A DNA stretch of 64,000 nt from Bacillota bacterium (GCA_012840225.1 DULU01000066.1:45226-109225), one strand, 5' to 3'. Shown: positions 4,181 to 62,684, counted from the first letter of the stretch. Translations and numbers: made by a program. Notes: a model not told the origin generated them from the letters alone.

Positions 4181-4220
4181 AATCTCATACCTCCTCGCAG
4201 TAGCCTAAGGTCATAATGAT

Positions 4221-4259
4221 CATATGCTCATTTAAATTATACCAAGTAATGAGCATATG
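4221..4259. promoter_or_regulatory. Perfect 12-bp inverted repeat, candidate operator upstream of the DUF5320-DUF134 genes
   Basis: CATATGCTCATT at 4221-4232 is the exact reverse complement of AATGAGCATATG at 4248-4259, with a 15-bp AT-rich spacer. It lies 40-80 bp upstream of the DUF5320 start at 4180. Confidence 0.4.
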
Positions 4260-4320
4260 TCAACAACCGGCTGTAAATGCAGCGCGGGCAATAGGTGAGG
4301 TAGTGATAAATTTGCCGGTT

Positions 4321-17589: not shown

Positions 17590-18939
17590 TCAGGCGCTGA
17601 TCTCCACCACCACCCGACGATAGGTGGTGAGGGGCGGCTCGCCGTCGTCCTGCACCTCCAGGATGATGTGCAGCTGGTGGCCGCCGGCGTCCTCCGGCAC
17701 CGGCAAGCGGCAGACAGGCGTGTCGGCTTCGTGCAGCTCGACCGGCCCGGTATAAGTGCCGGCTTCCTGGTACATCCACCAACTGAAACACAGGCTGTCG
17801 CCGTCGGGATCGGTTGAAGCCGAGGCGTCGAGGGTGAGCGTCTCGCCGGGATGGGCGGCAATAAAGTGAGGGGCGCGGGTCGGCGGAGCGCCAACCAGGG
17901 CGGCGAGCGGCGGGTGGTTGGCGACGGTAGCCGGTTTCACGCACCAATCCATGCGGGCGGCAAAATCGTTCTGGAAAGCTGCCCGCCAGCGAAAGACGGT
18001 CGCCCGGTGGCTGGTCTCGCCGGCTTCGGTGTCCAGGGCATCCTGGAAGAAGCTGCCGTTTTTGGTGAAACGGCCTCCCCAACCGCCCCAATCGGGTCGC
18101 CCGGGCACATTGAGGCCGTTTTCCAGAAAATAGAACCAGGAGGGGGTGTCTCCCTCCTTAAGGCAACCGTGGGGGTTAGGCGCTGTCCAGGTCTGCAGGG
18201 GATAAAGCCGGCCCAAGGGGCCGTGCTCTTGCGCAATGTTTTCCTTCACCCACTCAGCGGAGGTGAGCGTTTCGTCGCCGCCGAGATACATGCCGCGATA
18301 GCAGGAAGAAAGCTTTTTACCGCTTCTCGACATGTTTAATATATAGAAGAGTGCGGGGAAATGGCGGCGGATCCAGGGGCCGGTGGCATCCTGGTCGCCG
18401 ATGGTATGGACGCGGATTTTGGCCAGAAAGCGTTCCAGCTCTGCTTGGCTCCGATCCCGGCGCACCCGCCACAAGGCTTGAGCCAAATCGGCCGGGCCGC
18501 CCCACACAGCCACATTGACCGGGCGGGGGTCCTCACGATCGACCACGGCGATTATCCAGTCTGAACCTTCCGTATCTTTCCCCTCGCCGATCACCTTTTC
18601 TGCCGGGCCCGGATCCCCCTCCAGGGAAGTGGGCACGTTCACCATGCCTCTCTTCAGACAGCTGTTCAGGTATCCGGCGTCAGGGTAGCCGGCGGCATGC
18701 CGGGCCAAATTGGCCTGCACCTCACCATAGGCCGAGATGATCTCTCTGACCAGCTGCATCTGGCTTTCGGCATCGATGCCCCGCCTGGCGTGCTCGTTTC
18801 CGCTCCACAACTCGGGGATGATGCCCTCAATTGTAAATTCATTGGCATAGGTCAAGAGGCGGATCAGGCTTTGCTGGTCGTCGGGATCGCCCCCGATATC
18901 GGTGAGCACCACGAGGCGCGGTTTCCGGCTTGTGGTCAA
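17590..18939 (-). CDS. DUF1593 (Sde182-type nucleoside-hydrolase-like) domain protein with a C-terminal Ig-like domain
   Basis: PRLVVLTDIGGDPDDQQSLIRLLTYANEFTIEGII is the DUF1593 N-terminal signature. The C-terminal domain is beta-rich (…DPDGDSLCFSWWMYQEAG…). TTG start with an AAGGAGG RBS 8 nt upstream. Confidence 0.7.
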   Translation of the reverse strand: MTTSRKPRLVVLTDIGGDPDDQQSLIRLLTYANEFTIEGIIPELWSGNEHARRGIDAESQMQLVREIISAYGEVQANLARHAAGYPDAGYLNSCLKRGMVNVPTSLEGDPGPAEKVIGEGKDTEGSDWIIAVVDREDPRPVNVAVWGGPADLAQALWRVRRDRSQAELERFLAKIRVHTIGDQDATGPWIRRHFPALFYILNMSRSGKKLSSCYRGMYLGGDETLTSAEWVKENIAQEHGPLGRLYPLQTWTAPNPHGCLKEGDTPSWFYFLENGLNVPGRPDWGGWGGRFTKNGSFFQDALDTEAGETSHRATVFRWRAAFQNDFAARMDWCVKPATVANHPPLAALVGAPPTRAPHFIAAHPGETLTLDASASTDPDGDSLCFSWWMYQEAGTYTGPVELHEADTPVCRLPVPEDAGGHQLHIILEVQDDGEPPLTTYRRVVVEISA

Positions 18940-37462: not shown

Positions 37463-37691
37463 GCTAAATGGCGGTTTTCACATAGATCATTTCCCTAGCT
37501 ATAGGAGGCGTCGCTGGAGGAAGCGCTTGGCTCTGCCGGGCGCTTCCGCCGTTGCGGGCCTCCATTTGTATGGGCTTCCATTTGTATGCGGTAGCGGTGC
37601 CCGGCAGGGGAGGATTTTCCATCTATAAAGCCAATAATAACGTAATTAACCAGATTGGCGATTATTATGGGTATTGTTGAGGATGGTGGTT

Positions 37692-38687
37692 ATGAGCGAG
37701 AAGGTGAATATAAGAAAGCTGGCCGAGTTGGCCGGAGTTTCCGTGGCTACGGTATCCAGGGTGTTGAACGGCAAGGCAGGCGTCAGCGAGAAGACGCGGC
37801 GCCAGGTGATCGAGTATATGCATGAGCTGAACTATCGCCCGCCGGTCATCCTCAACCGTGGTGAGACCATCGGTCTGGTGGTGTTTCCCAATATGGAAAT
37901 ATTCCTCACCGATTTCTTTGCCGATCTGTTGCAGGGCCTGACCGAGGAGACTTTCCGCCGCGGGCAGCAGCTGATGCTCATGCGCTTGAACACCGGGGAC
38001 CTGACCGAGGATATCATGGGTCACTACATGCGCTCACATGGACTGTGCGGTTACATCATTCTCGGAACCACCCTCACCACCCAGGAAGCCGAACAGCTGG
38101 CGAAAGTGGAAGTGCCCTATGTGGTCACGGGCGGTGCATACCTGCCTGAAAACATCAACTGGGTCGGCTATGATCACATCGGCGCCGGGCGGGATATGGC
38201 CCGTTATGTGCTGTCCTTGCGCCACCGGCACATCGCTGCCGTCGGCCGGACGGAGGGGCGTCCGGTCGGAGCCGCCCACCTGCAGGGCATCAACGAAGAG
38301 CTGGCCAAAAACGGCCTGGAACTTTGGGGAGGTGCGCCCGTCGCTCCCCACCCCAAGGAATGCCGGCGCCTGTTGGAGGAGAGTCAAGCCACCGGTAAAC
38401 CGACGACCATCATCGGGCTCTCCCAGGAGGACGGCTTGCTGATCGTCTCCGAGTTGACCAAGATGGGACTGCGCCTGCCTACCGACATCAGTGTGGCCGC
38501 CTTTGGCGATTACCATTCGATTCAGTGGGTGGAGCCCAAGCTGACCACCATGCGGGTACCCACCGGGGAAATCGGCAGCAAATCCATCAACCTGTTGCTG
38601 GATCTGGCTGCCGGCTGGAGCGAGCGGCCCGTGCGCCATCAGTTCTCGCCGCAGTTGGTGCTGAGGGATTCGGTGGGGGCCATATAG
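37692..38687 (+). CDS. LacI-family transcriptional regulator
   Basis: N-terminal HTH NIRKLAELAGVSVATVSRVLNG followed by a sugar-binding domain. ATG 37692; the track ORF starts at 37674. Confidence 0.85.
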   Translation: MSEKVNIRKLAELAGVSVATVSRVLNGKAGVSEKTRRQVIEYMHELNYRPPVILNRGETIGLVVFPNMEIFLTDFFADLLQGLTEETFRRGQQLMLMRLNTGDLTEDIMGHYMRSHGLCGYIILGTTLTTQEAEQLAKVEVPYVVTGGAYLPENINWVGYDHIGAGRDMARYVLSLRHRHIAAVGRTEGRPVGAAHLQGINEELAKNGLELWGGAPVAPHPKECRRLLEESQATGKPTTIIGLSQEDGLLIVSELTKMGLRLPTDISVAAFGDYHSIQWVEPKLTTMRVPTGEIGSKSINLLLDLAAGWSERPVRHQFSPQLVLRDSVGAI

Positions 38688-39881: not shown

Positions 39882-42323
39882 ATGCAATGTATGCACCACC
39901 ATGACCTGGGTGCGGCCTCTCTGGTGGGTCCGGTGCCCGTAAAGGCTGGTTCCATGGGTACCTGGACTATTATATATAAAGCTGGTCCGCTGGGTTTGGA
40001 ACAGGACGGCCGCGTGGGCGTTTCCTGGCTTTTTGCTTCCGACTGGGGCAGTCCGCAGACAGCGGAACCCACCGCTCCCAACTACCTCACCGCCCACTGC
40101 CGCGGCAGAGCGGGACTCGAAGTGCGCTTTGACCGCAAAGGCTACAGGAGACCTTGGTGGCCGCTGGTGTGGATCAGGGTGATTGACGGCTACCTCGAGC
40201 CCGGTGAGGAGATCGAAATCACCTTGGGCGACAGAACCGGCGGCTCGCCGGGGCAGAGGGCACCTGCGGTGGTCAACCCGCATGGGGCATTTAAAGTGCT
40301 GGTCGATTATGGCGGCACGGGAAGATGGGTGGAGCTCTCTCCGCATCTGCCTGTGCCGGTGGTGGCCGGGAAACTGGCCCGCCTCTCCATCCAGGTGCCG
40401 TCCCTGGTGCGCCCGGGGGAAAGATTCCAGGCTTTGCTGCGCCTGGAAGATGAGTTGGGCAATGTGGCCGGCGGCAAGGAAGTGGAGGTGGCGTGGTGGC
40501 TGGCGGCAGGCGCCGACCAGAGCCGGCTCCGCCCGCTGCCGGAGGCTGCTTGCGGAAACGGGAAGGGAAAATGGAAGGTGCTCATCCCGCCGGAAGGTCT
40601 CGTGCGCCTTGACGGTCTGGAGATCAGTGTTCCCGGCCTCTACCATTTCTGCGGCCGCTGCGCGGACGGCCTTGCCGCTGTGAGCAATCCGCTTTTGGTG
40701 ACTTCTGAGGGGGAGAGCATTCTCTGGGGCGACCTGCACAGCCAGTCCAGCGAGGCGCTGGGGCTCCGTCCGGCTGTGGAGCAGCTTGAAATCGCCCGCC
40801 ATATCTCCGGACTGGATTTCGCTTCCCTGCAGGGGAATGATTATGATATCAACAGCTCGGAATGGGCGGCCATCCGCAAGGCTGTGGCCGAGGCCAACCG
40901 GCCGGGTTGCTTCACCGCCTTCCTGGGCTATGAATGGTCGGGCAACACGCCGGGCGGCGGCGACCACAACGTGCTCTATGTGGACGACGATGGCGAACTG
41001 CTGCGCTCAGGCTTCTGGTGTACCCGGGAAGAGAAAAACCCGGGCAGCAATGACGGCGGGCACTCCGGCGAGCGCGCCAGCGAGCGCGCCGGCGGGCAAG
41101 TCGGCTGTGGGAGCTCGGGCGAGCGTGACAGCGGGCGCTCGTATTACCCCATTACTGAAGTATATAATCACCTGCCGCCGGGGCGGGCGATGCTCATACC
41201 CCATGTAGGCGGGCGTTATGCCAATTTTGCTTATCATCATCACGAGTTGGAACCGCTGATCGAAATCTGTTCCACCTGGGGTTATTTTGAATGGTTTATT
41301 TTTGAGGCCCTGGAGCGGCAGATGAAGGTCGGCTTCACCGGCGGCAGCGACGATCATAAAGGGCGTCCTGGACTATTGTCCTATGCCTCGGGGATATTCA
41401 GCGGGCCGGGGGGCCTGACGGCGGTGAGGGGGGGAGAATGCACCAGGGAGTCTCTCTGGCAGGCCCTGTCCCGGCGGCGCTGTTATGCTACCACCGGCAC
41501 CCGCCTCATCATGGATGTAGAGGTGGCGGGAGGCGAGATGGGTTCATGTGTAAAGAGTTCCTCACCGGTGACGGTGCACTGCCGGGTGGTGGGCACGGCG
41601 CCCATTGAACGCCTGGAGCTGCGCCGGGGGAAGGAACTGGTTGCGGTCTACCGGCCCGATCCTGCCGGCCCGACCACAAGCCCAGCCACCGGCTCGACCA
41701 CCGGCCCGACTGCCGGCCGGCGCTGGCTGAGGCTCTCCTTCGCCGGCATCAGGCCGAAGAAAAGATACGCCGCTTTAAAATGGCCGGTAAACTTGAAGCT
41801 TAATGGGTGTGCAGAGCCGGAGGCTTGGCTCATCGGGAAAGACATAAAAGTGAGCCGCTGCCCGGATGGGGTCGGGGGCGGGAGCACGGACGGGAGAGGC
41901 TGTATGAGCGGTAGCAGCAGCGCGGCCGGCGGGGCGAACCAGGATGGCCGCAAGAGTTATGAGCTCTTCGCCTATACCGTGGGTATCGAGCGCAGCCTGT
42001 GGATCCCCCTTCTCGGGGAGGAAGCGTCGCTGGAGTTCAGCACGCCCTTCATCAACCTGACCTGGCCGTCCGGGGAGGGGGCCGGGGCGGAGAAGGAGCC
42101 GAATGCCTGGCCTGCACCGGTTCGTTCATTTATATATGAAAACGGGATATGGGCGGAGGTGAACGCCTCGTGCTGGTCGGGGCTGCCACAGGCTGTAGCT
42201 CTTGAAGCGACCTGGAGCGACCCGGCTCCTCCGGGCGAGCATGCTTACTGGGTGAAAGCGGTGCAGGTAGACGGGCACTTGGCCGTCGCCAGTCCGGTTT
42301 ATGTGCAGATAGATCCGAGTTAG
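39882..42323 (+). CDS. DUF3604-family protein (PHP-like metal-dependent hydrolase fold), 813 aa
   Basis: WGDLHSQSS, DHNVLYVDD, PHVGGRYANFAYHHH, GGSDDHKG and CYATTGTR motifs are shared with the paralog at 43742. There is an internal low-complexity insertion (GERASERAGG…SGERDSGRS). Confidence 0.6.
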   Translation: MQCMHHHDLGAASLVGPVPVKAGSMGTWTIIYKAGPLGLEQDGRVGVSWLFASDWGSPQTAEPTAPNYLTAHCRGRAGLEVRFDRKGYRRPWWPLVWIRVIDGYLEPGEEIEITLGDRTGGSPGQRAPAVVNPHGAFKVLVDYGGTGRWVELSPHLPVPVVAGKLARLSIQVPSLVRPGERFQALLRLEDELGNVAGGKEVEVAWWLAAGADQSRLRPLPEAACGNGKGKWKVLIPPEGLVRLDGLEISVPGLYHFCGRCADGLAAVSNPLLVTSEGESILWGDLHSQSSEALGLRPAVEQLEIARHISGLDFASLQGNDYDINSSEWAAIRKAVAEANRPGCFTAFLGYEWSGNTPGGGDHNVLYVDDDGELLRSGFWCTREEKNPGSNDGGHSGERASERAGGQVGCGSSGERDSGRSYYPITEVYNHLPPGRAMLIPHVGGRYANFAYHHHELEPLIEICSTWGYFEWFIFEALERQMKVGFTGGSDDHKGRPGLLSYASGIFSGPGGLTAVRGGECTRESLWQALSRRRCYATTGTRLIMDVEVAGGEMGSCVKSSSPVTVHCRVVGTAPIERLELRRGKELVAVYRPDPAGPTTSPATGSTTGPTAGRRWLRLSFAGIRPKKRYAALKWPVNLKLNGCAEPEAWLIGKDIKVSRCPDGVGGGSTDGRGCMSGSSSAAGGANQDGRKSYELFAYTVGIERSLWIPLLGEEASLEFSTPFINLTWPSGEGAGAEKEPNAWPAPVRSFIYENGIWAEVNASCWSGLPQAVALEATWSDPAPPGEHAYWVKAVQVDGHLAVASPVYVQIDPS

Positions 42324-43606
42324 CGAAGCAGTGGCAAGCCGGTGTAGACCGGACCGGGATCGTCCAGGATGCCTCCGGAGGCTTCATAAAACTCCTGATC
42401 CAGGTGAAAAGTCCCACGTTCGGGCCACAGCCAAGATGCTCCCGCTCTTGGGTGGGAGGACGCCACGAGCGCCGGCCAATCGGGGTAACTTTCCGGTCCG
42501 TTGGCTTCCATCAGTCCGCCTTTGATGCCGGGGAAAGGAGGCAGGTGGGCGGCAAAGATCTTGTTCCAGTCCACCAGGAACGGCACGCAGGCATTATCCG
42601 CCACATAGCAGGCCATCCGGTGGCGAGCGGCGGCAGAAGCCATCTCGAAGGCCACCGTCATGGTTTTCCCTGCCGGCTTGATGGCTATGGCGCTATAGCC
42701 CTGCGCGGCTTTGTGGGCGACGGCGGCGGCATCGTGCAGGCTTTCGTCGGCGGCGATCCTCACGGGCAGATCGCTGACATCGATCTCCAGCTCTTCGCCG
42801 AAAGGTTCTTCCAGAATGACGATGCGCTCCAGAGCCCCGATGGCCCCGGCATGGTCCAGGAGGCGAACGATGCTCTCTTTATGGCGGTAGCGACCGTTGG
42901 CATCGAGGTAATATAAAACCTGACCGCTCTCGGTCAACGGTGTGGCGTAGGCTTTGGCCACCTGATGCACCTCGCTCAGGCGGGCCATATCTTTGGCCAG
43001 CATCTCTTCTTCGCTGCCCGGTTGGCCGATCTTGATCTTGAGCAGGCCGGCTCCGTTTTGCAGGAGGCTTTCCACGGTGGATAGAGGCAAATGGTAGGTG
43101 ACGAGCGGTACGGCCACCAATTGCTTCTGGCGATGACATAATGCCGGCCGCACCGCCGCCGGGATCAGGTCGGTGAAACTTTTACCGCCCCGCAGGCGGG
43201 CATAAAGCACCCAGGCGGCGTTGTCCAAGGCTACCAGGGCATTGAGCGTAAAGGTGGGGCGGAGGGCGGGTCGTCCGGTGATCAGCCGGCCATAGCCATG
43301 CACTTCGTCTTTGACGGTGGCAAGCAACTCGGGCGGGTCGGCAAATTCCCGGCCTTCCGCCAGCTTCAGCGCCTTTTCCAGGAGGCAGAGCATGATCAGG
43401 TTGCCGCCGGCCTCGCTGTGAGCGGTGAAGACGGCCTCATCGGACCAGAGGACGGCCAGGCCGCCCAAGCCGAAAGCCTCATGGCCGCCGGCTTCTTCCA
43501 GGCGCACCACCGCATTCCATTTTTCCCGGAAGAAAGAGCCTTTGAAGCCGAAGGGGCGGGCAAAGGGCTCCCGCTGGATGTCAAAAAGAGCGCGTTTTAT
43601 TTTCAC
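42320..43606 (-). CDS. Enolase-superfamily enzyme (MR/MLE type; dipeptide-epimerase/racemase-like)
   Basis: Motifs LKIKIG (KxK), LYYLDANG, ILEEPF, RIAADES and IAIKPAGK match the MR/MLE metal-ligand and catalytic-Lys pattern. GTG start with an AAAGGAGG RBS 7 nt upstream. Confidence 0.7.
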   Translation of the reverse strand: MKIKRALFDIQREPFARPFGFKGSFFREKWNAVVRLEEAGGHEAFGLGGLAVLWSDEAVFTAHSEAGGNLIMLCLLEKALKLAEGREFADPPELLATVKDEVHGYGRLITGRPALRPTFTLNALVALDNAAWVLYARLRGGKSFTDLIPAAVRPALCHRQKQLVAVPLVTYHLPLSTVESLLQNGAGLLKIKIGQPGSEEEMLAKDMARLSEVHQVAKAYATPLTESGQVLYYLDANGRYRHKESIVRLLDHAGAIGALERIVILEEPFGEELEIDVSDLPVRIAADESLHDAAAVAHKAAQGYSAIAIKPAGKTMTVAFEMASAAARHRMACYVADNACVPFLVDWNKIFAAHLPPFPGIKGGLMEANGPESYPDWPALVASSHPRAGASWLWPERGTFHLDQEFYEASGGILDDPGPVYTGLPLLR

Positions 43607-43741
43607 CGGTCTGCCTCCTTTAGTCGCCTAAATCACGTCTTCTATTATGCCTGCTTTCGGCGGGTATTTCCACCGCCGGCAGGAATGGCGCAGGTGGCGG
43701 CGAGAAGAAGGAACAAGCCGGAAAGGGAAGCGAGACCGGAA

Positions 43742-45313
43742 ATGTTGAAGGACAAACTGATTTGGGCGGATTTGCACAATCACAATGAAATAGGATATGG
43801 CCGGGGCAGTCTGGAGCGGGCGGCGCGCCTGGCCCGGGAGCGGCTGGATATCTGGGCTTTCACCGCGCATGGCGCTTGGCCCGACTTGCCGCAAAACCCT
43901 GAGGACCCGGCGGTGCGGAAGCACCTGGCCGGCTTCGCCAAGGTGCGTGAAAACTGGCCGCTGGTGCTGCGGTCGCTGGAGGCGGCCACGCAGCCGGGGC
44001 GCTTCATCGCTTTGGCCGGTTTCGAATGGCACTCCAGTAAATACGGCGATCGTCATGTGCTGGCACCAGTGTCGCCGCTGCAGTTGCCAGGGATAGATAT
44101 ACCCCTGACCGAACTGAAGGCCTGGGCAGAGGCCCATGAGGCGCTGCTCATTCCTCATCACCTGGCATATCCGCCGGCATCGAGAGCCGTCGACTGGGCG
44201 ACGGTCGATGAGCGCCTGTCGCCGGTGGCGGAGATCTTCTCCGAACACGGCTGCAGCGAAGCCGACGACGCTCCCTGGCCGATGGACGGCCACAGCATGA
44301 GCCCGCGCAGCACGGTCAACTGCTGGCGCACAGCGCTGGATCGCGGGCTGCACCTTGGCGCCGTCGCTTCCACCGACAATCATGAAGGCTGCCCGGGAGC
44401 GTATAACGAAGGGCTGACCGGCCTCTGGGTGGAAAATTTCAGCGTGGCGGGGCTCTTTGCCGCCTTGCGCCGTCGCCGGACCTTTGCCGTCACCGGAGAT
44501 CGCCTGGTCCTGGACTGGTCCTGTCTGGAGGTGCCGATGGGGGAGACGGTGTCTTTGAGCGGTCGGGCTGCCGGCGGAGCAGGCGGCCTCCAGGTGCCGC
44601 TCCGGTTTTGGGTGGCGGGCCGGGATGCCATAGACTGCATCGATCTGATCTGCAACGGGCGGCTTTGGCGGCGCTGGACCCCCGGCGTGGATGTGCCGGA
44701 GGACGACGGCGGGCCAGGGCCGGAGTTCGCCTGCGGCAAGAGCGGCGGGAAGGAGATCTGGTTGGTGAGAGGCCGGTGGGGCTGGGGCCGCATGGGGAAT
44801 ACGGCGGTGAACCACTGGAAGGCCGAGCTGAAAGTGGCGGGCGGCGAGGTGCTCAAGGTGGAGCCGGGGTTCGGCAGCGTGCCGCCGGAAGGCGGAGCCG
44901 ACGGCACTTGCATCTGGTCCGGTGGGCCGGAGCTCTCCTGGTCTTCCCGCACCAGCCGGGCATACCCCCAGTGCTATGACCAACTGCTCCTGGAAGTGGC
45001 CGGAGACGACCGCACCCGCCTGGAACTGGAAGTGGAGTGCCGCCTGGACGAGAAGGTGTGGCGGCGCAGGGCCATATGCTCATTGGGCGAGCTGAGGCAG
45101 CATTCCTGCGAGGTGGCCATGGACGAGCCGCCGCTCACGCCCCGCTTCCAGTGGGCCAGGGCTTTGCCTGCCGCTCTTTGTACAGTGGCGGTGACGGAGC
45201 AGGTCGTATTGTCGGGCGAGGTGGCCTCTAAAGCGGAGAGTTATATATATATTCGGGTGCGCCAGCGCAACGGCCAGATGGCCTGGTCTTCTCCCATATG
45301 GCTGAAGCCGTGA
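43742..45313 (+). CDS. DUF3604-family protein (PHP-like), paralog of the 39882 gene
   Basis: IWADLHNHNEIGYGRGS, LAGFEWHSS, IPHHLAYPP, STDNHEG and FAVTGDR motifs. ATG 43742 was chosen because the track ORF from 43298 would overlap the enolase gene by about 300 nt. The start is uncertain (alternative ATG 43686). Confidence 0.6.
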   Translation: MLKDKLIWADLHNHNEIGYGRGSLERAARLARERLDIWAFTAHGAWPDLPQNPEDPAVRKHLAGFAKVRENWPLVLRSLEAATQPGRFIALAGFEWHSSKYGDRHVLAPVSPLQLPGIDIPLTELKAWAEAHEALLIPHHLAYPPASRAVDWATVDERLSPVAEIFSEHGCSEADDAPWPMDGHSMSPRSTVNCWRTALDRGLHLGAVASTDNHEGCPGAYNEGLTGLWVENFSVAGLFAALRRRRTFAVTGDRLVLDWSCLEVPMGETVSLSGRAAGGAGGLQVPLRFWVAGRDAIDCIDLICNGRLWRRWTPGVDVPEDDGGPGPEFACGKSGGKEIWLVRGRWGWGRMGNTAVNHWKAELKVAGGEVLKVEPGFGSVPPEGGADGTCIWSGGPELSWSSRTSRAYPQCYDQLLLEVAGDDRTRLELEVECRLDEKVWRRRAICSLGELRQHSCEVAMDEPPLTPRFQWARALPAALCTVAVTEQVVLSGEVASKAESYIYIRVRQRNGQMAWSSPIWLKP

Positions 45314-47768: not shown

Positions 47769-47797
47769 CGGTGCCGGGCGGCGAAGCCGGCTGGAGG

Positions 47798-47846
47798 CTC
47801 CGGAGCTGGAGCTTGAATTCTCCAGGCTCCGGGGCCGCTTTTTTCT
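47798..47846 (+). terminator. Rho-independent terminator after the aminotransferase gene
   Basis: CCGGAGCTGGAG…CTCCAGGCTCCGG is an imperfect ~12-bp stem, followed by GGCCGC and then TTTTTT. Confidence 0.5.
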
Positions 47847-47972: not shown

Positions 47973-48917
47973 ATGGTGGGGACCGGTGGCTGCGATGTTT
48001 TGGGATTGGGCTGCGTGGCTGTGGACGATCTGTTTTTTGTGGACCGCTACCCGGCGCCTGATGAAAAAGTGATGGTCAGGGAGAGATACCGGCAATGCGG
48101 CGGTTTGACGGCCACCGCTTTGGTGACTGCCGCCAGGTTGGGCGCTTCCTGCGCCTATGCCGGCATGCTGGGGGAAAATGAATTATCTGCCTTTGTCCGC
48201 AACACGTTGGAAAAAGAGGGCATCGATACCAGTCGAGTGGTGCCGGTGAAAGAGGCGGCTCCCATCCATGCCATTGTCATCGTGGATATTAAGGCGCGGA
48301 CCCGCACCATTATCAACTGCCCGCCTCCCGTCACCGGGGCGCACCCGGAGTTGCCGCCAGCCGAGGTGATAGAGCACACCAAAGTGCTGCTGGTGGACCA
48401 TTGGGGCGCCGCCGGCATGTTGAGGGCGGCCGGGGTGGCCAAAGCTGCCGGTATTCCCGTGGTAGCCGATTTCGAATTGACGGGCATCGATTGGGTGGCC
48501 CCGGTAATGCCGCTGGTGGATCATCTCATTGTGCCGGAATCCTTTGCGCTGCGGTATACCGGCGAGAGCGACGCCCGAGCTGCGGCGATGGCGCTGGTGC
48601 AGCCAGGGAGGAAGACGGTGATCGTCACCCAAGGGGCGAGAGGCGGCGTTTATGTGGATGCCGCAGCGTCTCGTCCCGTGGTGCAGACCTATGGCATCTA
48701 CCCGGTTGAGGTCGTGGATACCACCGGTTGCGGCGACGTTTTCCATGGGGCTTATTGCATGGCGCTGGTGAAAGGCTGGCCGCTCGAGGAGCGGGTGCGT
48801 TTCGCTTCAGCCGTCGCCGCCCTGAAGGCTACCAAACCGGGAGGCCAAGCCGGCATCCCGCGGGTCGACGAAGTGTTTCACTTTATGAAGACCAACCGAC
48901 CGGTTGATTACAGATAA
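47973..48917 (+). CDS. PfkB-family (ribokinase-like) carbohydrate kinase
   Basis: VLGLGCVAVDDLFFV, the GG dipeptide (RYRQCGGLTATA) and the C-terminal DTTGCGDVFHGAY catalytic motif. GGAAGGGAA RBS. Confidence 0.85.
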   Translation: MVGTGGCDVLGLGCVAVDDLFFVDRYPAPDEKVMVRERYRQCGGLTATALVTAARLGASCAYAGMLGENELSAFVRNTLEKEGIDTSRVVPVKEAAPIHAIVIVDIKARTRTIINCPPPVTGAHPELPPAEVIEHTKVLLVDHWGAAGMLRAAGVAKAAGIPVVADFELTGIDWVAPVMPLVDHLIVPESFALRYTGESDARAAAMALVQPGRKTVIVTQGARGGVYVDAAASRPVVQTYGIYPVEVVDTTGCGDVFHGAYCMALVKGWPLEERVRFASAVAALKATKPGGQAGIPRVDEVFHFMKTNRPVDYR

Positions 48918-48938: not shown

Positions 48939-50243
48939 ATGGAGGCGCAGCCGCAGATGAACAAGGAGCAAAAAGACCTCGTCCCACCGCAGCCGGAGCT
49001 GGGGGGAGGAAATGAGCAGGACTATATCTTTGCCGAGTATTATGTCAGCAGCCCTTCGGGGAGAGATGTCATGGACTTGGCCCGGCGCTTTGCCGTGGGG
49101 CAGACCGTAGGTACCTGGATGGAGCTCCCCGGCTTGACGGCGGAGATCAGAGCCCGGCATCAGGGACAGGTGGTGGATGTGCTGGAGCTGCCACCACGGC
49201 GAGATGCCGGCGGCGGGGTGAGCGAATATCTCCTGCAAGTGGCCTATCCCTGGCGCAATTTCGACGACAGCATCAGCATGCTTTTTACCACCCTCATCGG
49301 CAACGATACCTCTACTGCCTTACCTGTTAAGCTCGTCGATTTGACCTTCCCCGAGGCCTATGCCAGGCAGTTTCCCGGGCCGCGGTACGGACTGGCCGGC
49401 TGGCGGCAGCTCGCCGGGGTGAGTGAGAGGCCGCTGGTGCTGAACATGATCAAACCATGTGTCGGTCTGAGCCCGGCCGAAGGCGCGGCTATCTTCTATG
49501 AGACGGCCCTGGGCGGGGTGGACTTCATCAAGGACGACGAATTGCTCGGCGACACCTCTTTCTCGCCGCTTGAGGAGAGAACGAAAGCCTATGTGGCCGC
49601 CGCCCGCCGGGCTGAAGAGGAAACGGGGAAAAGGGTACATTATGTGGCCAACGTGACCGGGCGGCCGGAGCGCCTCAAGGAGCGCGCCCGTCGGGCGGTG
49701 GCGGCCGGGGCCGGCGCCGTGATGGTCAACTGGCTCTTTACCGGTCCCGATGCCTTGGTGGATCTGGTGGCGGATGGGGAGATCAATGTGCCTGTGCTGG
49801 CCCATTGCGCCGGCACCGGACTTTACCTGGATTCGCTGGCCGGAGGGGTGGCCTCACGGGTGCTCTTCGGCCGTCTGGCCAGGCTGGCCGGCGCCGATGC
49901 CGTCATTTTCTGCACACCCATGAGCGGCGGCGGCATCACCAAGAGCGAGTTCCTGAAGACCGCCCATTATCTGCGATCACCGCACAGCTGCCACCGGCCC
50001 AGCCTGCCGGTGGTGGGAGGTGGAGCGACACCCGGGCAGTTGCCGGTGATTGCCGGTGATATCGGCCTCGACGTGATGATCGCCGCCGGCGGCGCGGTGC
50101 AGGGCCATCCCATGGGTGCCAAGGCCGGAGCCAAAGCTATGATGGCGGCGGCGGAAGCCGTGGCTCGCGGCCTCTCATTGGCCGAGGTGCAGAAGGAGTC
50201 TCCGGAGCTCGCCGCCGCTTTGCAATTGTGGGGCGGGCTATGA
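48939..50243 (+). CDS. RuBisCO large-subunit-like protein (form IV RLP)
   Basis: NMIKPCVGLS is the K175 equivalent at residue 172. GGVDFIKDDE supplies the K201/D203/E204 equivalents at residues 198-201. The C-terminal glycine loop VVGGGATPG is present. Alternative start ATG 48957, which lies 11 nt after GGAGG. Confidence 0.85.
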   Translation: MEAQPQMNKEQKDLVPPQPELGGGNEQDYIFAEYYVSSPSGRDVMDLARRFAVGQTVGTWMELPGLTAEIRARHQGQVVDVLELPPRRDAGGGVSEYLLQVAYPWRNFDDSISMLFTTLIGNDTSTALPVKLVDLTFPEAYARQFPGPRYGLAGWRQLAGVSERPLVLNMIKPCVGLSPAEGAAIFYETALGGVDFIKDDELLGDTSFSPLEERTKAYVAAARRAEEETGKRVHYVANVTGRPERLKERARRAVAAGAGAVMVNWLFTGPDALVDLVADGEINVPVLAHCAGTGLYLDSLAGGVASRVLFGRLARLAGADAVIFCTPMSGGGITKSEFLKTAHYLRSPHSCHRPSLPVVGGGATPGQLPVIAGDIGLDVMIAAGGAVQGHPMGAKAGAKAMMAAAEAVARGLSLAEVQKESPELAAALQLWGGL

Positions 50244-50288
50244 CGGGTTATGATAAATGATAAATTGGATTCAAGGAGATTTGCCTGT

Positions 50289-51848
50289 ATGGAACTTGCA
50301 GTAACACCTGAAGCTTTGCGGTTGTGGCCATTCCAGGAAGCGGAGAGATTGATCAAGCGCTGGCCGCAAAAAGAAAAATTCATCCTGGAGACGGGCTTCG
50401 GGGCTTCCGGTCACCCGCATATGGGCACCATCGGGGAGATTGTGCGCACCCATTATGTGGTCATGGCTTTGCGACAGTTGGGCAAAGATGCCGAGATCAT
50501 TGTCTTTTCCGACGACATGGACGGCCTGCGCAAGGTGCCGCAGAATATCGCCGCGCCGTGGCTGAAGGATTACCTGGGGGTGCCGGTGACCAGCATTCCC
50601 GATCCCTACGGCACGGCGGCTTCCTTCGGGGAGCATATGAACGCCGAGTTGCGGGAGATGATGGCGCAGACCGAGATCGACGCCACCTTCAAATCGGCGA
50701 CCGCCTGCTATAGCGACGGCACCTTTGCCGACGGCATCCGGCAGATGTTCGCCCATATGGAGGAGATCAAAGCTTTAGCCTTGCCCACCATGCGCGAGGA
50801 GAACCGGGTCGGCTGGTTTCCCTGGCTGCCGCGCTGCGAGCGCTGCGGGAAGCTTTATACCACCATTGTGGAGCATTACGACCCGGAACGGCTGACGGTG
50901 GATTATAAATGCACCGGGAGCTTCCGCGATGTGACCGGTTGCGGCTACCAGGGCAGTCAGAGCGTTCTCGGCGGCACCGGCAAATTTTACTGGAAGGCGG
51001 ATTGGGCACTGCGCTGGCATGTGCTGGGCATCAATTACGAGATGCACGGCAAGGATCTGCTGGATTCGGCCAAGCTCTCGGCGGCCATGGTCAGATGTCT
51101 CGGTGGGAAGCCGCCTCTGACCATGGTGTATGAGCTCTTTCTGACCGAGGAAGGGCGGAAGATCAGCAAGTCCACCGGTGCGGGCATTTCCATGGAAAAC
51201 TGGGACCGCTGGGGGACCCAGGATTCGCTGAACCTGCTCATGTTCAAAAACCCCAAGCAGCAGAAAAAGCTGAGCACGGCGAGCATCATCCAATACACCG
51301 ACGAAACTCTGACCATGGAGCCGAGCGATCCGCAGTATCAGTTTATATATTATCACGGCGACCGGCCCGATCTCGGCGGCCTGCGCTATTCGGACATCAT
51401 CAATCTGGTGAACGCCACCAGCATCACCGATGCCGATCAGCTGGTGGAGTATCTCGGCCGCAGCTTCGGGATGGAGCGCATCAAGGCCAACGAGAAGTTT
51501 GTGCGGGAACTTTTGACCAAGGCAGTGAATTATTATAATGATTTCATCCTGCCGACCCGCCGCGTCCCCGAGCTATCGGCCGAGGACTGGGCTTTGATCG
51601 CCAGGTTTGAGCAGCTGATCGATGAGACCGACGATGCCGACGCCATCCAGTCCGGGGTGTATGAAATCGCCCGCAGCGCCGGCCGGGAACCGAAGGAATT
51701 CTTCAAGGTGATATACGGGGTGTTGCTGGGGGCCGAGAGCGGTCCCAGGGTGGGCGGCTTCGTCAAGCTGGTGGGAAAGGAAAAAGTGCACGAGCTGATC
51801 GCCGCCGCCCGTGAGCAGGCCGGTGTGGCCGCCCGGCAGGAGCAATAG
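50289..51848 (+). CDS. lysK: Class-I (archaeal-type) lysyl-tRNA synthetase
   Basis: HIGH-like motif SGHPHMGT, KMSKS motif KISKSTG and an overall match to class-I LysRS (…FSDDMDGLRKVPQNI…). AAGGAGA RBS lies upstream of ATG 50289. The track ORF starts at 50250. Confidence 0.75.
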   Translation: MELAVTPEALRLWPFQEAERLIKRWPQKEKFILETGFGASGHPHMGTIGEIVRTHYVVMALRQLGKDAEIIVFSDDMDGLRKVPQNIAAPWLKDYLGVPVTSIPDPYGTAASFGEHMNAELREMMAQTEIDATFKSATACYSDGTFADGIRQMFAHMEEIKALALPTMREENRVGWFPWLPRCERCGKLYTTIVEHYDPERLTVDYKCTGSFRDVTGCGYQGSQSVLGGTGKFYWKADWALRWHVLGINYEMHGKDLLDSAKLSAAMVRCLGGKPPLTMVYELFLTEEGRKISKSTGAGISMENWDRWGTQDSLNLLMFKNPKQQKKLSTASIIQYTDETLTMEPSDPQYQFIYYHGDRPDLGGLRYSDIINLVNATSITDADQLVEYLGRSFGMERIKANEKFVRELLTKAVNYYNDFILPTRRVPELSAEDWALIARFEQLIDETDDADAIQSGVYEIARSAGREPKEFFKVIYGVLLGAESGPRVGGFVKLVGKEKVHELIAAAREQAGVAARQEQ

Positions 51849-51883
51849 CAGGCGCAATAAATGAATAGAGTAAATAAAGAAAA

Positions 51884-51920
51884 GACGCTGCCGGGGGAGA
51901 ACCGGGCAGCGTCTTTTTTT
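51884..51920. terminator. Bidirectional rho-independent terminator between the lysK and pntB convergent genes
   Basis: GACGCTGCCGGG-ggagaa-CCGGGCAGCGTC is a perfect 12-bp stem. TTTTTTT follows on the plus strand and a T-rich tract follows on the minus strand. Confidence 0.7.
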
Positions 51921-51955
51921 AACATCTTCGCATCCAACAGATCGGCCCAAGGCCA

Positions 51956-53340
<1,385 letters not shown>

Positions 53341-53344
<4 letters not shown>

Positions 53345-53640
53345 TTGGACGCTCCTTCACTGCGGCCTTTGAACATCAGCAGCATGCGGTCTGTTACCAT
53401 AAACCCGCCGACTAAATTGATGGTAGCCAGAACTACTGCCAAAAAGCCGATAATTTGCAAAACCAGGGTGTCGGCCGGTGCCGTTATCAGCAGGGCGCCC
53501 ACGATGGCGATGCCGGAGATGGCGTTGGCTCCCGACATCAGCGGTGTGTGCAGGATGGGCGGCACTTTGCTGATCACTTCAAACCCGGCGAATGCGGACA
53601 GGACGAAGATATAAATGCCGAATAACAGCTCGCCCGGCAT
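53341..53640 (-). CDS. pntAB: NAD(P) transhydrogenase subunit alpha part 2 (membrane)
   Basis: About 100-aa membrane protein MPGELLFGIYIFVLSAF…LMSGANAISGIAIVGALL. A GAGGGAGG RBS lies 7 nt upstream of ATG 53640. The track start at 53682 is rejected. Confidence 0.8.
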
Positions 53641-53682
53641 GCGAAAACCTCCCTCGATATATTTTCTCCCCAGGTGGACCAC

Positions 53683-54840
53683 TCACGAACCCTTTTGCGC
53701 CGCCAGGAGTTCGGCGGTGCGGCCGTGCTTGATCTCCCCTGCGTGGGTGATGCAACAATCCTTGATGATGACGTCGTTGAAGTCCAGATTCAGCTGCCCG
53801 TTTTTATGCAAAAGCAACAGGAAATTGGTCAAATTCCTGGAGAAGAGCTGGCTCGACTGGGCAGCCATCTCACTGGGCAGGTTGGATGGTCCGTGGATGA
53901 TGACGTCATGCTTGATCACGGTCTGGTCGGGAGTGGTGAGCTCGCAGTTCCCACCCATCTCGGCGGCCAGATCCACGATGACCGAACCCGGCTTCATATC
54001 CGCCACCATCTCCGCCGTGACCAGGATAGGCGCCCGGCGGCCCGGGATCAGGGCGGTGGTGATAACGAAATCGGCCAGTTTGATCCTTTCGTGGATTTTC
54101 TCCTTCTGGCGGCGCTGGGCGTCTTCGGTAAGCTCTTTGGCATAACCGCCTTTATCTTCGGTGGCCTGCCCGTAGTCCACTTCCACGAAGGTGGCGCCCA
54201 AGCTTTCTACTTGCTCTTTAACCGCCGGCCTGACGTCGAAGGCCTCCACCACGGCACCCAGGCGGCGGGCAGTGGCGATAGCCTGCAGTCCGGCCACCCC
54301 GGCGCCGAGAATCAACCCCCGGCTCGGCGGGATGGTGCCGGCCGCCGTGGTGAGCATCGGCAGGTATTTACCGAGCGAATTGGCAGCGATCAATACCGCC
54401 TTATACCCGGCAATCGAGCTCATGGCCGAAAGCACGTCCATGTTCTGCGCCCTGGAGATGCGGGGTATGGCGTCCAGGCTGAAGCTGGTCACCCGGCGGC
54501 TGGCCAATATGCCGGCCACCTTGGGATGAACCAGCGGCTGCAACAGAGCGATCAGCACTTTTCCTTCCGGGATGGCGTCCAGTTCTGCGTGGTCTCCGTC
54601 CGGTCCCAGCGGCCGCTGTACTTTGACGATGATATCTGCCGCCGCCGTCAGCTCGGTTCGGTCGGCCACCACAGTGGCGCCGGCCTCTTCATAGAGGCGG
54701 TCGGAGATGAAGGAAGCCGCCCCGGCCCCTTTTTCCACCAGCACCTCCAACCCGACTTTCTTCAGTTTGACGATGCTTTCCGGGACTAAAGCCACCCGGC
54801 GTTCGCCGGGCATCTGTTCTTTCCAAACACCGATTTTCAT
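53683..54840 (-). CDS. pntAA: NAD(P) transhydrogenase subunit alpha part 1 (AlaDH-like dI domain)
   Basis: MKIGVWKE…, Rossmann ILGAGVAGLQAI, PntAA/AlaDH-like architecture. Confidence 0.9.
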   Translation of the reverse strand: MKIGVWKEQMPGERRVALVPESIVKLKKVGLEVLVEKGAGAASFISDRLYEEAGATVVADRTELTAAADIIVKVQRPLGPDGDHAELDAIPEGKVLIALLQPLVHPKVAGILASRRVTSFSLDAIPRISRAQNMDVLSAMSSIAGYKAVLIAANSLGKYLPMLTTAAGTIPPSRGLILGAGVAGLQAIATARRLGAVVEAFDVRPAVKEQVESLGATFVEVDYGQATEDKGGYAKELTEDAQRRQKEKIHERIKLADFVITTALIPGRRAPILVTAEMVADMKPGSVIVDLAAEMGGNCELTTPDQTVIKHDVIIHGPSNLPSEMAAQSSQLFSRNLTNFLLLLHKNGQLNLDFNDVIIKDCCITHAGEIKHGRTAELLAAQKGS

Positions 54841-57523: not shown

Positions 57524-58813
57524 CTAAAGCAGGTTTGACGGAATCAGTTCCAGGTTCCAGAGATCAGGGGTGATCTCGGCGTTGTTGCCGGAGATGGTGA
57601 TGTTCCTCCCGGCGAGAAGGCCGGTGACCTTCACATTGGACCCTGATATAGTAATATCTCTTTTGCTGATGATGGCGGCGCGCACATCGGCGTTGGCTTC
57701 CTGGATGAAGACATTGTTCTCCGCCCAGATGACCAGGCCGTGAGGGGCGCCGCTGCCGCGCCTGGTGATCTTCACATCTCCCTTGACGACGATCACCCCG
57801 CCGCCCTGCAGATAGCCGTCGAGCGTCAGATCGCCGTCCACCGTGATGATACCGTCGAGCGGGGCGCCGGTCTGCAGGGTGAGGTTGCCGCGGAACGACC
57901 TGTTCGCCCATCTCTGCCAGTCGTTCCATTTGATGTCCGGAAGGGACAGCCTGGAGGGCACCCGGCTGGTGTAGTTGCGATTGTTTCCGAACTGGGAGAT
58001 GCTGTCGTAGGCATAGATGCCGCCCGAGATCACGATGTTGTTGCCCAGGACGTCACAGTCGTCGTTGGACCTGATCCGGCCGTATATTTTAAGGTTGTTG
58101 CCGCGCAGCGTTATATCCCCTGTGGAGAAGATGGCATATCCCAAAGCCGGCCATTTGCGCACGGCCCAGGGTTCACTTGGCTCGACGGGAGTGGGAAAGG
58201 GAGTGGGAATCGGCTGGTCGTATTGCGGAGGCGTAGGCACAGGCACCGGGGCGGGTGCCGGTATCGGTTGCGGGGTGGGCACCGGGACCGGGGTAGGTTT
58301 TGGGGTTGGGGAGGTGGCCGGCGGCGTGTGGACGGACACCGAGGGCGTTTCTATGGTGACGTCTATGATGGCCGACACTCCTACCTGCTCCACCCGCCGC
58401 AGGCCCTGGAAAGGATTCTTGCTGTCCAGCGGCACCAAAGCCTTGGCTCTGAGGCCGCCGAAGATATCGGCCTCGATCTGGCCGACGGCCTGGACCTTGT
58501 TGACCAGATGAGCCGGGCCGGTGACCTGGGCGGCGCCTACATAGGCCCCCGTACCCACGCTGATTATCGGCACCACCTTGGTGACGGCCAGCTTCTCCAG
58601 CCCCCTGTTGAAAGTGATGGTGTTGATGAAATCATTGATCTCTTCGTTGCATAAATCGACCACATAGGCGATACCGAAAAGCTTCAGGGCGGAAAAGATG
58701 TCCAGGGCGGCATGTGTGACGGGCACCAGACTGGAGACCATGATCAGGACCGTCACCAGCAAAATGATTCTGTTGGCTGCTCTTTTGTTTAAACTTTTTT
58801 TCACCGTCATCAT
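57524..58813 (-). CDS. Hypothetical membrane-anchored or secreted protein: N-terminal TM, Pro/Thr-rich linker, C-terminal beta-helix-like repeat domain
   Basis: N-terminal anchor RIILLVTVLIMVSSLV. Linker TPKPTPVPVPTPQPIPAPAPVPVPTP. C-terminal repeats (GNNLKIYGRIRSNDDCDVLGNNIVISGGIYAY…DITISGSNVKVTGLLAGRNITISGNNAEI) resemble bactofilin/DUF4097-type beta-helix rungs. The track ORF extends upstream to 59011. Confidence 0.45.
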   Translation of the reverse strand: MMTVKKSLNKRAANRIILLVTVLIMVSSLVPVTHAALDIFSALKLFGIAYVVDLCNEEINDFINTITFNRGLEKLAVTKVVPIISVGTGAYVGAAQVTGPAHLVNKVQAVGQIEADIFGGLRAKALVPLDSKNPFQGLRRVEQVGVSAIIDVTIETPSVSVHTPPATSPTPKPTPVPVPTPQPIPAPAPVPVPTPPQYDQPIPTPFPTPVEPSEPWAVRKWPALGYAIFSTGDITLRGNNLKIYGRIRSNDDCDVLGNNIVISGGIYAYDSISQFGNNRNYTSRVPSRLSLPDIKWNDWQRWANRSFRGNLTLQTGAPLDGIITVDGDLTLDGYLQGGGVIVVKGDVKITRRGSGAPHGLVIWAENNVFIQEANADVRAAIISKRDITISGSNVKVTGLLAGRNITISGNNAEITPDLWNLELIPSNLL

Positions 58814-58824
58814 AAACCTCCAGT

Positions 58825-59382
58825 CTATTGACCGGCACGGCACAAGCCGGCGAGCCATCTGCCCGTGATCTCCAGCACGACCTTTTTGTGGTCCAGATTC
58901 TGGCGGCGGGCAGGTATCAAATCCACCACATCGAAACCGCAGGTGACCAGGATTTTTTCCAGGCTGACCACCGCGCTCGGGGCGCCGCCTCCTCCGCCTC
59001 CGGCCACGCATATCCCCACCGCCTTTTTCCCGGCAAAATTGGCACCGCTGGGACGGGAGACGCGCCGCAGGCGGTCGAGAAAGGCGCGCATGCTTTCGGA
59101 CAGATCACCGAAATAGACCGGGGTGGCGAAGACCACGGCCTCAGCCGCACGGATAGCCGCCGCTATGCCGGCCAGGTCGTCGTGGATGATGCACATCCCC
59201 TCCTGCCGGCAGGTGCCCCAGCCGCTGGCGGTGCATTGCCGACATCGCTGGATATCCTTCTCCGGGAGGAAGAGGCGCTCGACCGCCCCTCCTTCCGCCT
59301 CCACACCTGAAAGGAGAGCGTTCACCGCTTGGGCAGTCTGCCCTTCCGGGTTACGACTGCCGAGAATCGCCAGGACTTTCAT
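58825..59382 (-). CDS. NADPH-dependent FMN reductase / iron-sulfur flavoprotein-like (flavodoxin fold)
   Basis: MKVLAILGSRNPEGQT… flavodoxin-like N-terminus plus Cys cluster RCRQCTASGWGTCRQEGMC. AAGGAG RBS. Upstream of, and co-directional with, the beta-helix protein gene. Confidence 0.6.
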   Translation of the reverse strand: MKVLAILGSRNPEGQTAQAVNALLSGVEAEGGAVERLFLPEKDIQRCRQCTASGWGTCRQEGMCIIHDDLAGIAAAIRAAEAVVFATPVYFGDLSESMRAFLDRLRRVSRPSGANFAGKKAVGICVAGGGGGGAPSAVVSLEKILVTCGFDVVDLIPARRQNLDHKKVVLEITGRWLAGLCRAGQ

Positions 59383-60887: not shown

Positions 60888-62684
60888 TTGAAATCTAAAG
60901 CAAGATCAAGAGCTAAAGGGAAAAAGCGCCCCGCCGCCAGGCGGGGCCGTTTGTGGTATTGGGGCGTGTTCGGCACGGCGCTGGCTTTGCTCGGGCTGTG
61001 GGCTCTGAGCCGCAAGGCGGAGCAGGTGGCGCCGGCGTTGGATATCGACCTCATGCTGGAGCAGATGACCCTGGCGCAGAAAGCCGGCCAGCTGGTGATG
61101 ACCGGCTTTCCGGGCAATGAACCCGGGACGGAAGCCGAGACTTTGGTGCGGGATTACTGCGTGGGGGGAGTGGTGTTGACCGCCCGCCAGACGCCGGACA
61201 CGGCGCAGACCGCCCGCACCACCGGCCGGTTGCAGGAGTTGGCCGCCGCTTCCGCCTCCTGCGCCGGGGTTCCTCTTTTCATTGCCGCCGATCAGGAAGG
61301 CGGCTATGTGGTCAGGCTGCGCGGCCCCCATCTTTTTCCCGGCAATATGGCTTTGGGGGCCATCGGCTCGGCCGGCCGGGCGCGGGAGGTGGCCCGGGCG
61401 ATCGGGTTGGAATTGAAAGCTGCCGGCATCAACATGAATCTCGCCCCCGTCCTCGATGTCAACAGCAACCCCCAGAATCCGGTGATCGGGGTGCGCTCCT
61501 TCGGTGAGGATGCGGCCGCGGTAGCCGAGTTGGGTGCAGCTTATATCGCCGGCCTGCATGATGCCGGGGTGCTGGCTGTTGCCAAGCATTTTCCGGGCCA
61601 CGGCGATACGGCAGTGGATTCCCACATCTCCCTGCCTTCGGTGCCCCATGCCAGGGAGCGCCTGGACCGGGTGGAACTGGTGCCTTTTCGCCGGGCTATC
61701 GACACCGGGGTGGACGCCGTAATGACCTCCCATGTCACCTTTCCGGCCATTGAACCGATCCCCGGTCTGCCGGCTACCCTTTCGGCTAAGGTGCTCACCG
61801 GGCTCTTGCGGGAGGAGTTGGGTTTTGCGGGCCTGATCATCACCGACGCTCTGGAGATGAAAGCCATTGTGGATAACTTCGGCCTGGCCGAGGCCGCCGT
61901 CAAAGCGGTAGAGGCCGGGGCGGACATAGTGCTGGTGGGCTGGCCGACCGATTGGCGGCAGGCCTGCCGGGCGGTGGAGGCCATTATGGCGGCGGTGAAG
62001 GAAGGAAAAGTGAGCGAAGAGCGACTCAATGCTTCCGTGCGCCGCATTCTCCGCGCCAAGCTGGCGGCGGGGCTCTGGAAGGAAGCCTCCGCCACCACGG
62101 CTGCCGAGTCGGCCGCTCTGGCGGAGACGGTGGCCGGGGAGGCCGTCACGCTGGTGCGGGACAGGGACCGCCGCCTGCCCCTTAACCCTCAGGACACCTC
62201 TTCCGTGTTGGTGATCATGCCCCAGCTGAGCAGCATCACCAGGGTGGAGGAGACCGACCCCGCCTCCGCCGGTTTGGCTGCTTATCTCCGCCGGTATCTT
62301 CCCCGGGCGGAGGTGACGGGAGCTTTCATGTCCCTCAGACCCGGCAAAGAGGAAAGGGAACGGCTGGTGAAGCTCGCCCAAGAGCATGAAGTGGTGGTGG
62401 TCGCCACTTATTATGCCTGGTCCGCTTCCTATATCGGCCAGGCGGAGCTGGTGCTCGAACTTATGCGGGCAGGGCGGGAGCCGGTGGTGACGGCGCTCAG
62501 AGAGCCCTACGATCTGTTGCGCTTTCCGGAGGTAGGAACCTATATAGCCACCTACAGCGCCAACCCTGAGAGCCTCGAAGCTCTGGCGGCCGTTTTGACC
62601 GGCCGCCGAGAAGCGACCGGGCGCTTGCCGGTATCATTGCCCGGTTTATATTCCGCCGGGTATAGGTATGAGGGGGCCCGCTGA
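60888..62684 (+). CDS. Glycoside hydrolase family 3 (NagZ-like beta-N-acetylhexosaminidase) with N-terminal membrane anchor
   Basis: Lys/Arg-rich N-terminus plus TM (YWGVFGTALALLGLWAL). GH3 motifs GQLVMTGF, IAADQEGG, KHFPGHGDT and ITDALEM. TTG start with a GAGGTG RBS 6 nt upstream. Confidence 0.8.
   Translation: MKSKARSRAKGKKRPAARRGRLWYWGVFGTALALLGLWALSRKAEQVAPALDIDLMLEQMTLAQKAGQLVMTGFPGNEPGTEAETLVRDYCVGGVVLTARQTPDTAQTARTTGRLQELAAASASCAGVPLFIAADQEGGYVVRLRGPHLFPGNMALGAIGSAGRAREVARAIGLELKAAGINMNLAPVLDVNSNPQNPVIGVRSFGEDAAAVAELGAAYIAGLHDAGVLAVAKHFPGHGDTAVDSHISLPSVPHARERLDRVELVPFRRAIDTGVDAVMTSHVTFPAIEPIPGLPATLSAKVLTGLLREELGFAGLIITDALEMKAIVDNFGLAEAAVKAVEAGADIVLVGWPTDWRQACRAVEAIMAAVKEGKVSEERLNASVRRILRAKLAAGLWKEASATTAAESAALAETVAGEAVTLVRDRDRRLPLNPQDTSSVLVIMPQLSSITRVEETDPASAGLAAYLRRYLPRAEVTGAFMSLRPGKEERERLVKLAQEHEVVVVATYYAWSASYIGQAELVLELMRAGREPVVTALREPYDLLRFPEVGTYIATYSANPESLEALAAVLTGRREATGRLPVSLPGLYSAGYRYEGAR

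Follow-up and report, generated by a model that had tools for sequence, protein, structure and literature searches.

The window, which is the whole 64,000-nucleotide stretch of DNA that was analysed, carries a complete gene for a class-I lysyl-tRNA synthetase (LysRS), lysK, directly downstream of a gene for a RuBisCO-like protein (RLP). Its motifs are conserved among related enzymes, it has no T box, and its linkage to the RLP gene is not conserved in other genomes. Most probably, lysK is a functional, vertically inherited LysRS gene for general translation, and its adjacency to the RLP gene is a lineage-specific rearrangement.

The host is a Bacillota bacterium related to Symbiobacteriaceae. 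In this organism the lysK product would charge tRNA-Lys for general translation, using an active site built up by a Rossmann fold with HMGT and KISKS loops as in all class-I LysRS, and its C-terminal helical domain would bind the anticodon. The rearrangement would have put lysK behind a PfkB-family kinase gene and the RLP gene within a large sugar-catabolism region without forming a functional module.

The lysK gene and its product

The ORF containing lysK spans positions 50250-51848 on the plus strand. The likely start of the gene is ATG 50289, which has the Shine-Dalgarno sequence AGGAG in front of it at 50274-50278, and the resulting product of 519 amino acids (50289-51848) is identical to the product of an independent gene call in a JGI metagenome (P0001). 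With the in-frame ATG at 50250, the product would have 532 amino acids, and this start is less likely. The mechanical ORF begins there because a tandem heptamer, ATGATAA ATGATAA, is in frame with lysK. This heptamer (50250-50263) is located in the AT-rich spacer between the RLP gene and lysK and has no evident function.

The original prediction described the ORF as a class-I LysRS with HMGT and KISKS motifs, and the profile searches agree with this. The product matches PF01921 (tRNA-synt_1f, class-I LysRS) with an E-value of 2.3e-100 and 336 bits, the cut-off being 27, and it scores 206 bits against TIGR00467 ('lysS_arch'), above the cut-off of 147.55. It also aligns with NF001968 (PRK00750.1-2), the equivalog profile for bacterial lysine--tRNA ligase, over residues 21-522. 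The score of 437 bits does not reach the cut-off of 648 for this profile, which counts against the explanation that we favour. Because of its divergent Bacillota subclade, the lysK product is regarded as a member of the broader family only.

Both signature motifs can be read from the sequence on the plus strand: the HIGH-type class-I signature HMGT (H44-T47) at 50418-50429 and the KMSKS-type signature KISKS (K291-S295) at 51159-51173. When 120 homologues were compared, the HIGH-type motif was HMGT in 50 and HIGT in 58 (together 108/120), and KISKS was found in 104. From these counts, HMGT or HIGT combined with KISKS is the signature that is usual for class-I LysRS in bacteria. H44, G46, T47 and KISKS are invariant in an alignment of 18 sequences of the Bacillota clade, and M45 is nearly invariant. 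C183, C186, C208 and C218, four cysteines in an insertion in the catalytic domain, are likewise invariant in these 18 clade members. The lysK product thus has a conserved, cysteine-rich insertion of zinc type with putative metal binding.

A phmmer search against PDB matched only the LysRS from P. horikoshii (1IRX, E-value 7.5e-38), and a second match to the same structure falls in the C-terminal domain (residues 450-495). The AlphaFold model of the lysK product has a pLDDT of 86.5 and a pTM of 0.79, and its C-terminal half is helical from residue 367 to 510. The best PDB match to this model in Foldseek is also 1IRX, with a TM of 0.68-0.71 over 531 columns, covering the whole length, and GluRS structures rank next. 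GluRS-like structures are the expected next-best matches for a class Ib enzyme. The match to Pfam Anticodon_2 is weak (14.7 bits, E-value 0.042).

Judged from the profiles and the predicted structure, the lysK product is a complete class-I LysRS whose C-terminal part is a helical domain for anticodon binding. A truncated paralogue lacking tRNA-binding determinants, which had been named together with the original prediction as a finding that would speak against it, is excluded, as is a degenerate paralogue, by the profile coverage over the full length, by the motifs conserved in the 18-sequence alignment and by the modelled structure with its alignment to 1IRX and its helical C-terminus.

Three class-I LysRS homologues (P0058, P0073 and P0074, the last from an Anaerolineales MAG) have a length of about 756-762 amino acids. 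They carry a PF03483 B3/4 domain at residues about 594-745, at the C-terminal end after a normal LysRS body. The B3/4 domain has the fold of the editing domain in the PheRS beta-subunit.

Flanking genes and transcription signals

The window (positions 1-64000) is a carbohydrate-utilisation island with at least nine GFO/IDH/MocA oxidoreductases and three solute-binding proteins. It also encodes a ROK regulator (5118-6353), a Sde182 nucleoside-hydrolase-like protein (17590-18939), a chondroitinase-B-like beta-helix protein (19256-21592), a LacI regulator (37674-38687), two DUF3604/CehA-type metallohydrolases (39882-42323 and 43298-45313) and a GH3 glycosidase (60888-62684). Within the 64 kb, lysK is the sole gene for translation. 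No class-II LysRS was found in the window in a tblastn search with LysS from E. coli, and over related loci the same query rendered a single match, with about 29% identity, in L032.

The RLP gene (48939-50243, plus strand; PF00016 and PF02788) is situated directly 5' of lysK, and the JGI call for it starts at 48957. It was classified as RLP because its product is a homologue of the RuBisCO large chain that falls under every NCBIfam equivalog cut-off, the best match being MtnW with 344 bits (cut-off 409). The substrate of the RLP is probably a phosphosugar or an acid-sugar. The gene preceding it, the first in a putative PfkB-RLP-lysK unit, encodes a PfkB-family sugar kinase (47973-48917, plus strand; PF00294, E-value 1.7e-40) whose best NCBIfam match is ribokinase, far under the cut-off. 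Downstream of lysK are the convergent transhydrogenase genes pntB and pntA (51956-54840, minus strand; PF02233, PF12769, PF01262 and PF05222).

According to the original prediction, lysK starts about 45 nucleotides after the RLP stop on the same strand, with no terminator in between and with a strong bidirectional terminator behind it. This arrangement was found in the sequence. The RLP stop is at 50243 and the spacer at 50244-50288 (plus strand), which includes AGGAG, leaves 45 nucleotides to the lysK start at 50289. The spacer contains no terminator-like hairpin or T-run (fold z-score -0.8). A canonical promoter in this gap would have argued against the proposed unit, but the promoter scan found no promoter-like match there. 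By eye, just a poor extended -10-like sequence, TGATAAATT, can be seen in the gap; it has no -35 element and was not called by the scan.

The structure behind lysK is a hairpin at 51877-51920 that resembles an intrinsic terminator and is common to lysK on the plus strand and the convergent pntB on the minus strand. A stretch of 90 nucleotides folds at -33.3 kcal/mol (z-score -5.2), and none of 200 shuffles was as stable. The hairpin looks bidirectional because it has an A-run on its 5' side and a U-run on its 3' side, and because it is positioned 36 nucleotides from the convergent pntB stop. At the other end, the gap of 204 nucleotides between the gene for a class-III aminotransferase and the PfkB gene contains a long, GC-rich hairpin with a T-run, TTTTTT, behind it (47796-47845, plus strand). 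Its 95-nucleotide fold has an energy of -49.9 kcal/mol (z-score -2.6), and it is likely to be a terminator that sets PfkB-RLP-lysK apart from the DUF3604-GFO-aminotransferase genes.

It is plausible from these signals that PfkB-RLP-lysK is a transcription unit with the two terminator-like structures as its bounds. Since the 45-nucleotide gap between the RLP gene and lysK is free of terminators, co-transcription of lysK with the two upstream genes is likely, and read-through from the PfkB-RLP unit probably extends into lysK. The gene may also have a weak promoter of its own in the 3'-terminal part of the RLP gene. A weak sigma-70-like match called there by the promoter scan (GTGCCA-16-TATGAT, 9/12; 50116-50143, plus strand) is a candidate internal promoter, which may transcribe lysK separately. 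This site is not significant on its own because seven sigma-70-like sites were found in 8 kb compared with 2.6 +/- 1.5 in shuffles.

No T box or other element was found by Rfam at gathering thresholds over the whole window. In the region 49500-52200, a search at E<=1 gave two chance-level sRNA matches and otherwise nothing, thus no T box. A T box or another leader RNA for lysK was rejected on these results and on the length of the gap, which is just 45 nucleotides.

Relatives, genomic context and alternative explanations

Class-I LysRS is widespread in bacteria and is found in hundreds of species. At least 591 GTDB species representatives encode a relative, counted among the first 600 pattern matches listed, and an alignment-based profile scan of genome contigs gave at least four close relatives among the matches listed. 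The closest homologues among the matches listed are lysine--tRNA ligases from MAGs named 'Symbiobacteriaceae bacterium' with 70-76% identity, the nearest relative being 76% identical. The wider Bacillota clade shows 51-64% identity to the lysK product. Identity is about 35-43% in other phyla and groups, which include Latescibacterota, Gemmatimonadota, Myxococcota, Spirochaetia, Rickettsiales, Pelagibacteraceae, Reyranella and Sphingomonadales.

A phylogenetic placement had been proposed along with the original prediction. A neighbour-joining tree puts the window protein in the bacterial clade, where it forms a small branch with P0004, P0024 and P0026 that is sister to the main Symbiobacteriaceae group. 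The mean identity to outgroup sequences is 0.398 for the window protein and 0.387-0.408 for its relatives. The lysK product thus shows no accelerated evolution, and an accelerated, neofunctionalised paralogue was rejected since the value is within the range of the sister sequences. Similarly, a compositional anomaly or horizontal transfer was rejected because GC3 in lysK (0.78) is like that of the neighbouring genes (0.68-0.79).

The genomic context of lysK was compared in 10 members of the clade (P0021, P0002, P0012, P0004, P0024, P0029, P0046, P0031, L008 and L009) and in 80 loci from other genomes. An RLP gene was beside lysK in none of the 10 contexts and in none of the 80 loci. The arrangement is repeated only in one further contig, which stems from the same JGI sample. 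This contig is collinear with 99.8% identity, and 21.5 kb of it show 44 SNPs but no indels. Three of the SNPs are in lysK and six in the RLP gene, all synonymous. That two strain-level contigs share the arrangement speaks against a chance position, but with this degree of identity it carries little weight. When RLP and PfkB from the window were used as tblastn queries against 86 other lysK loci (the locus from the same organism, L001, was left out), no adjacent copy of either was found. The sole match, in a gammaproteobacterium, was weak, with 27% identity, and lysK is about 6 kb away from it.

In the complete 4.3-Mb chromosome (P0021), lysK adjoins an rRNA operon, in P0002 it is preceded by a gene for a Spo0A-like regulator and in P0012 it has SpoVA, SOD and PaaX genes around it. 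On the nearest branch (P0004 and L008), an M14-like gene and a MutS-like gene flank it closely, and in P0024 an rRNA operon is located upstream together with a group II intron. Three more contexts (P0029, P0046 and P0031) are unrelated, and a greA region is also among the contexts of the 10 homologues. The sole remnant of synteny is a hypothetical gene at 57524-59011 (minus strand) in the window, which is also found downstream of lysK in L008. This suggests that lysK has been resident while its flanks have changed.

Some of these loci have further features of their own. An rRNA operon adjoins lysK in two relatives (L095 1-4832 and L002 4587-9516), and in L095 a group II intron separates lysK from the 5S rRNA gene. 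Rfam matches for D1-D4 of this intron are at 3118-3405, and an ORF with RVT_1 and GIIM is at 3441-4832. In L008 (223-4898) and L094 (90-4012), which belong to the branch nearest the window protein, lysK is on the same strand as, and in between, a gene for an M14-peptidase-like protein of 445 amino acids and a MutS-like gene. Upstream of lysK the gaps measure 10-28 nucleotides, and downstream there are 13 nucleotides or a short overlap, which makes this another tight array of lysK with unrelated genes. A c-di-GMP-I riboswitch (74 bits) at 5178-5264 in L009, from a Symbiobacteriaceae MAG, is situated about 2.7 kb upstream of lysK and is unrelated to it.

RLP homologues that are 45-52% identical occur frequently in Clostridia, Actinomycetota and Paenibacillus. 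Three of their contexts are clusters for the catabolism of sugars or acid-sugars, with ABC transporters and with genes for UPF0261, PEP_hydrolase, class-II aldolase, TIM/RpiB and FGGY kinase, and neither lysK nor any other aaRS gene was found in these three. The RLP in the window is paired with a PfkB kinase, unlike the clusters of the homologues with about 50% identity (L088-L092). Taken together, the position of lysK next to the RLP gene looks like a chance neighbourhood and not a functional link. The PfkB-RLP-lysK unit of the original prediction stands as far as the sequence is concerned, which is compatible with it through the terminator-free gap and the bounding hairpins, whereas a meaningful linkage does not, as the adjacency does not recur. 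An operon is plausible in the trivial sense of read-through only.

The tight spacing, the gap without terminator or consensus promoter and the hairpin upstream of PfkB would nevertheless fit an operon under a catabolic promoter, and in this respect they count against the explanation that we favour. An essential gene under the promoter of a catabolic pathway would be odd. The original prediction considered that lysK might be an auxiliary or specialised enzyme. As a second LysRS, it would be tied to the PfkB-RLP sugar pathway by obligatory co-transcription, and a class-II LysRS would take care of routine charging. Besides the gap and the terminator-like hairpin, this would be in line with the presence of both LysRS classes in S. 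thermophilum (PMC2916919) and with the label 'lysS2' given to one homologue (P0042) by its submitter. However, the conditional enzyme in S. thermophilum, controlled by a T box, is the class-II LysRS, and a T box is lacking for the class-I enzyme (PMC2916919). Homologues of lysK are found alone or beside rRNA operons or other housekeeping genes, the window protein shows neither truncation nor rate acceleration, and the linkage occurs in this lineage only. An auxiliary role is therefore unlikely.

In this lineage, the class-I LysRS might be wired into a sugar-inducible PfkB-RLP operon with a T-box-controlled class-II LysRS, like the one in S. thermophilum, giving the baseline, which we consider quite improbable. 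If true, the dosage of lysyl-tRNA synthetase would rise on a particular carbohydrate, and the carbon source would divide the labour between the two LysRS classes.

It is very unlikely that the LysRS takes part biochemically in a pathway with the RLP, PfkB and the aminotransferase, for instance in a lysine-releasing or an aminoacyl-tRNA-dependent step. Only the physical adjacency points in this direction, and there is a weak similarity between the PfkB protein and fructoselysine 6-kinase (52 bits compared with a cut-off of 247). The PfkB protein is nearer ribokinase, however, the catalytic and anticodon-binding features of the lysK product are standard for LysRS, and the adjacency is present in no other genome examined. 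A literature search for a link between RLP and LysRS gave no report of one and returned one unrelated proteomics paper.

Antibiotic gene clusters are known to include additional aaRS copies that confer resistance and the family has historically been named 'archaeal-type', but it is extremely unlikely that lysK is an extra copy providing self-resistance or a decoy against a LysRS inhibitor, or a recent horizontal transfer from archaea, given that the window has only sugar catabolism and transport genes and no biosynthetic cluster, that the nearest relatives listed are Symbiobacteriaceae and other Bacillota (51-76%) followed by other bacteria (about 40%), that the fold alignment to P. horikoshii LysRS has just 21% identity and that the codon composition is native.

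The result adds one sequence to a well-known bacterial family of class-I LysRS and matters little beyond that. The RLP cluster is best interpreted without the LysRS.

Comparison with known LysRS systems

A class-I LysRS in Bacillota is not surprising in itself, as Symbiobacterium is documented to carry one. Symbiobacterium thermophilum encodes the class-I LysRS1 (lysK, STH208), which has no T box, and also a class-II LysRS (STH525) regulated by a T box (Foy et al. 2010, PMC2916919). The lysK gene in the window resembles that of LysRS1 in being class-I, in belonging to the same family-level Bacillota group and in having no T-box leader, and no T box was found upstream of lysK in 13 related loci. 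The closest named homologues among the matches listed, the 'Symbiobacteriaceae bacterium' ligases, are 72-74% identical to the window protein, and the names of these MAGs suggest that the window lysK is orthologous to STH208. It differs from S. thermophilum in that the window protein is found in a sister branch and in that the GC content of the window is 58.5%, compared with 68.7% in S. thermophilum (PMC2916919).

Bacillus cereus and B. thuringiensis are other members of Bacillota with a class-I lysK, which is T-box-regulated, belongs to the stationary phase and is of Pyrococcal origin (PMC2916919). The window lysK is similar in being a class-I LysRS gene in a Bacillota genome, where a class-II enzyme may be encoded as well. 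In contrast to lysK in B. cereus, it has no T-box leader, and its origin is in the bacterial clade and not Pyrococcus-like.

The LysRS from P. horikoshii (1IRX) has the same overall organisation as the window protein, with a Rossmann catalytic domain, an insertion domain and a C-terminal helical domain. The identity in the structural alignment is only about 21%, though, and the P. horikoshii enzyme has HVGN where the window protein has HMGT and no KISKS at the aligned position. As judged by its profile scores, 437 bits for NF001968 and 206 bits for TIGR00467, the window protein is in the bacterial clade.

Class-I LysRS is known as the sole LysRS in spirochaetes and Alphaproteobacteria. The enzymes in these groups, represented here by homologues from Spirochaetia, Rickettsiales, Pelagibacteraceae, Reyranella and Sphingomonadales, share HIGT or HMGT together with KISKS and a length of about 520 amino acids with the window protein, to which they are 35-42% identical, but they constitute a phylum-level clade other than the one in which the window protein is found.
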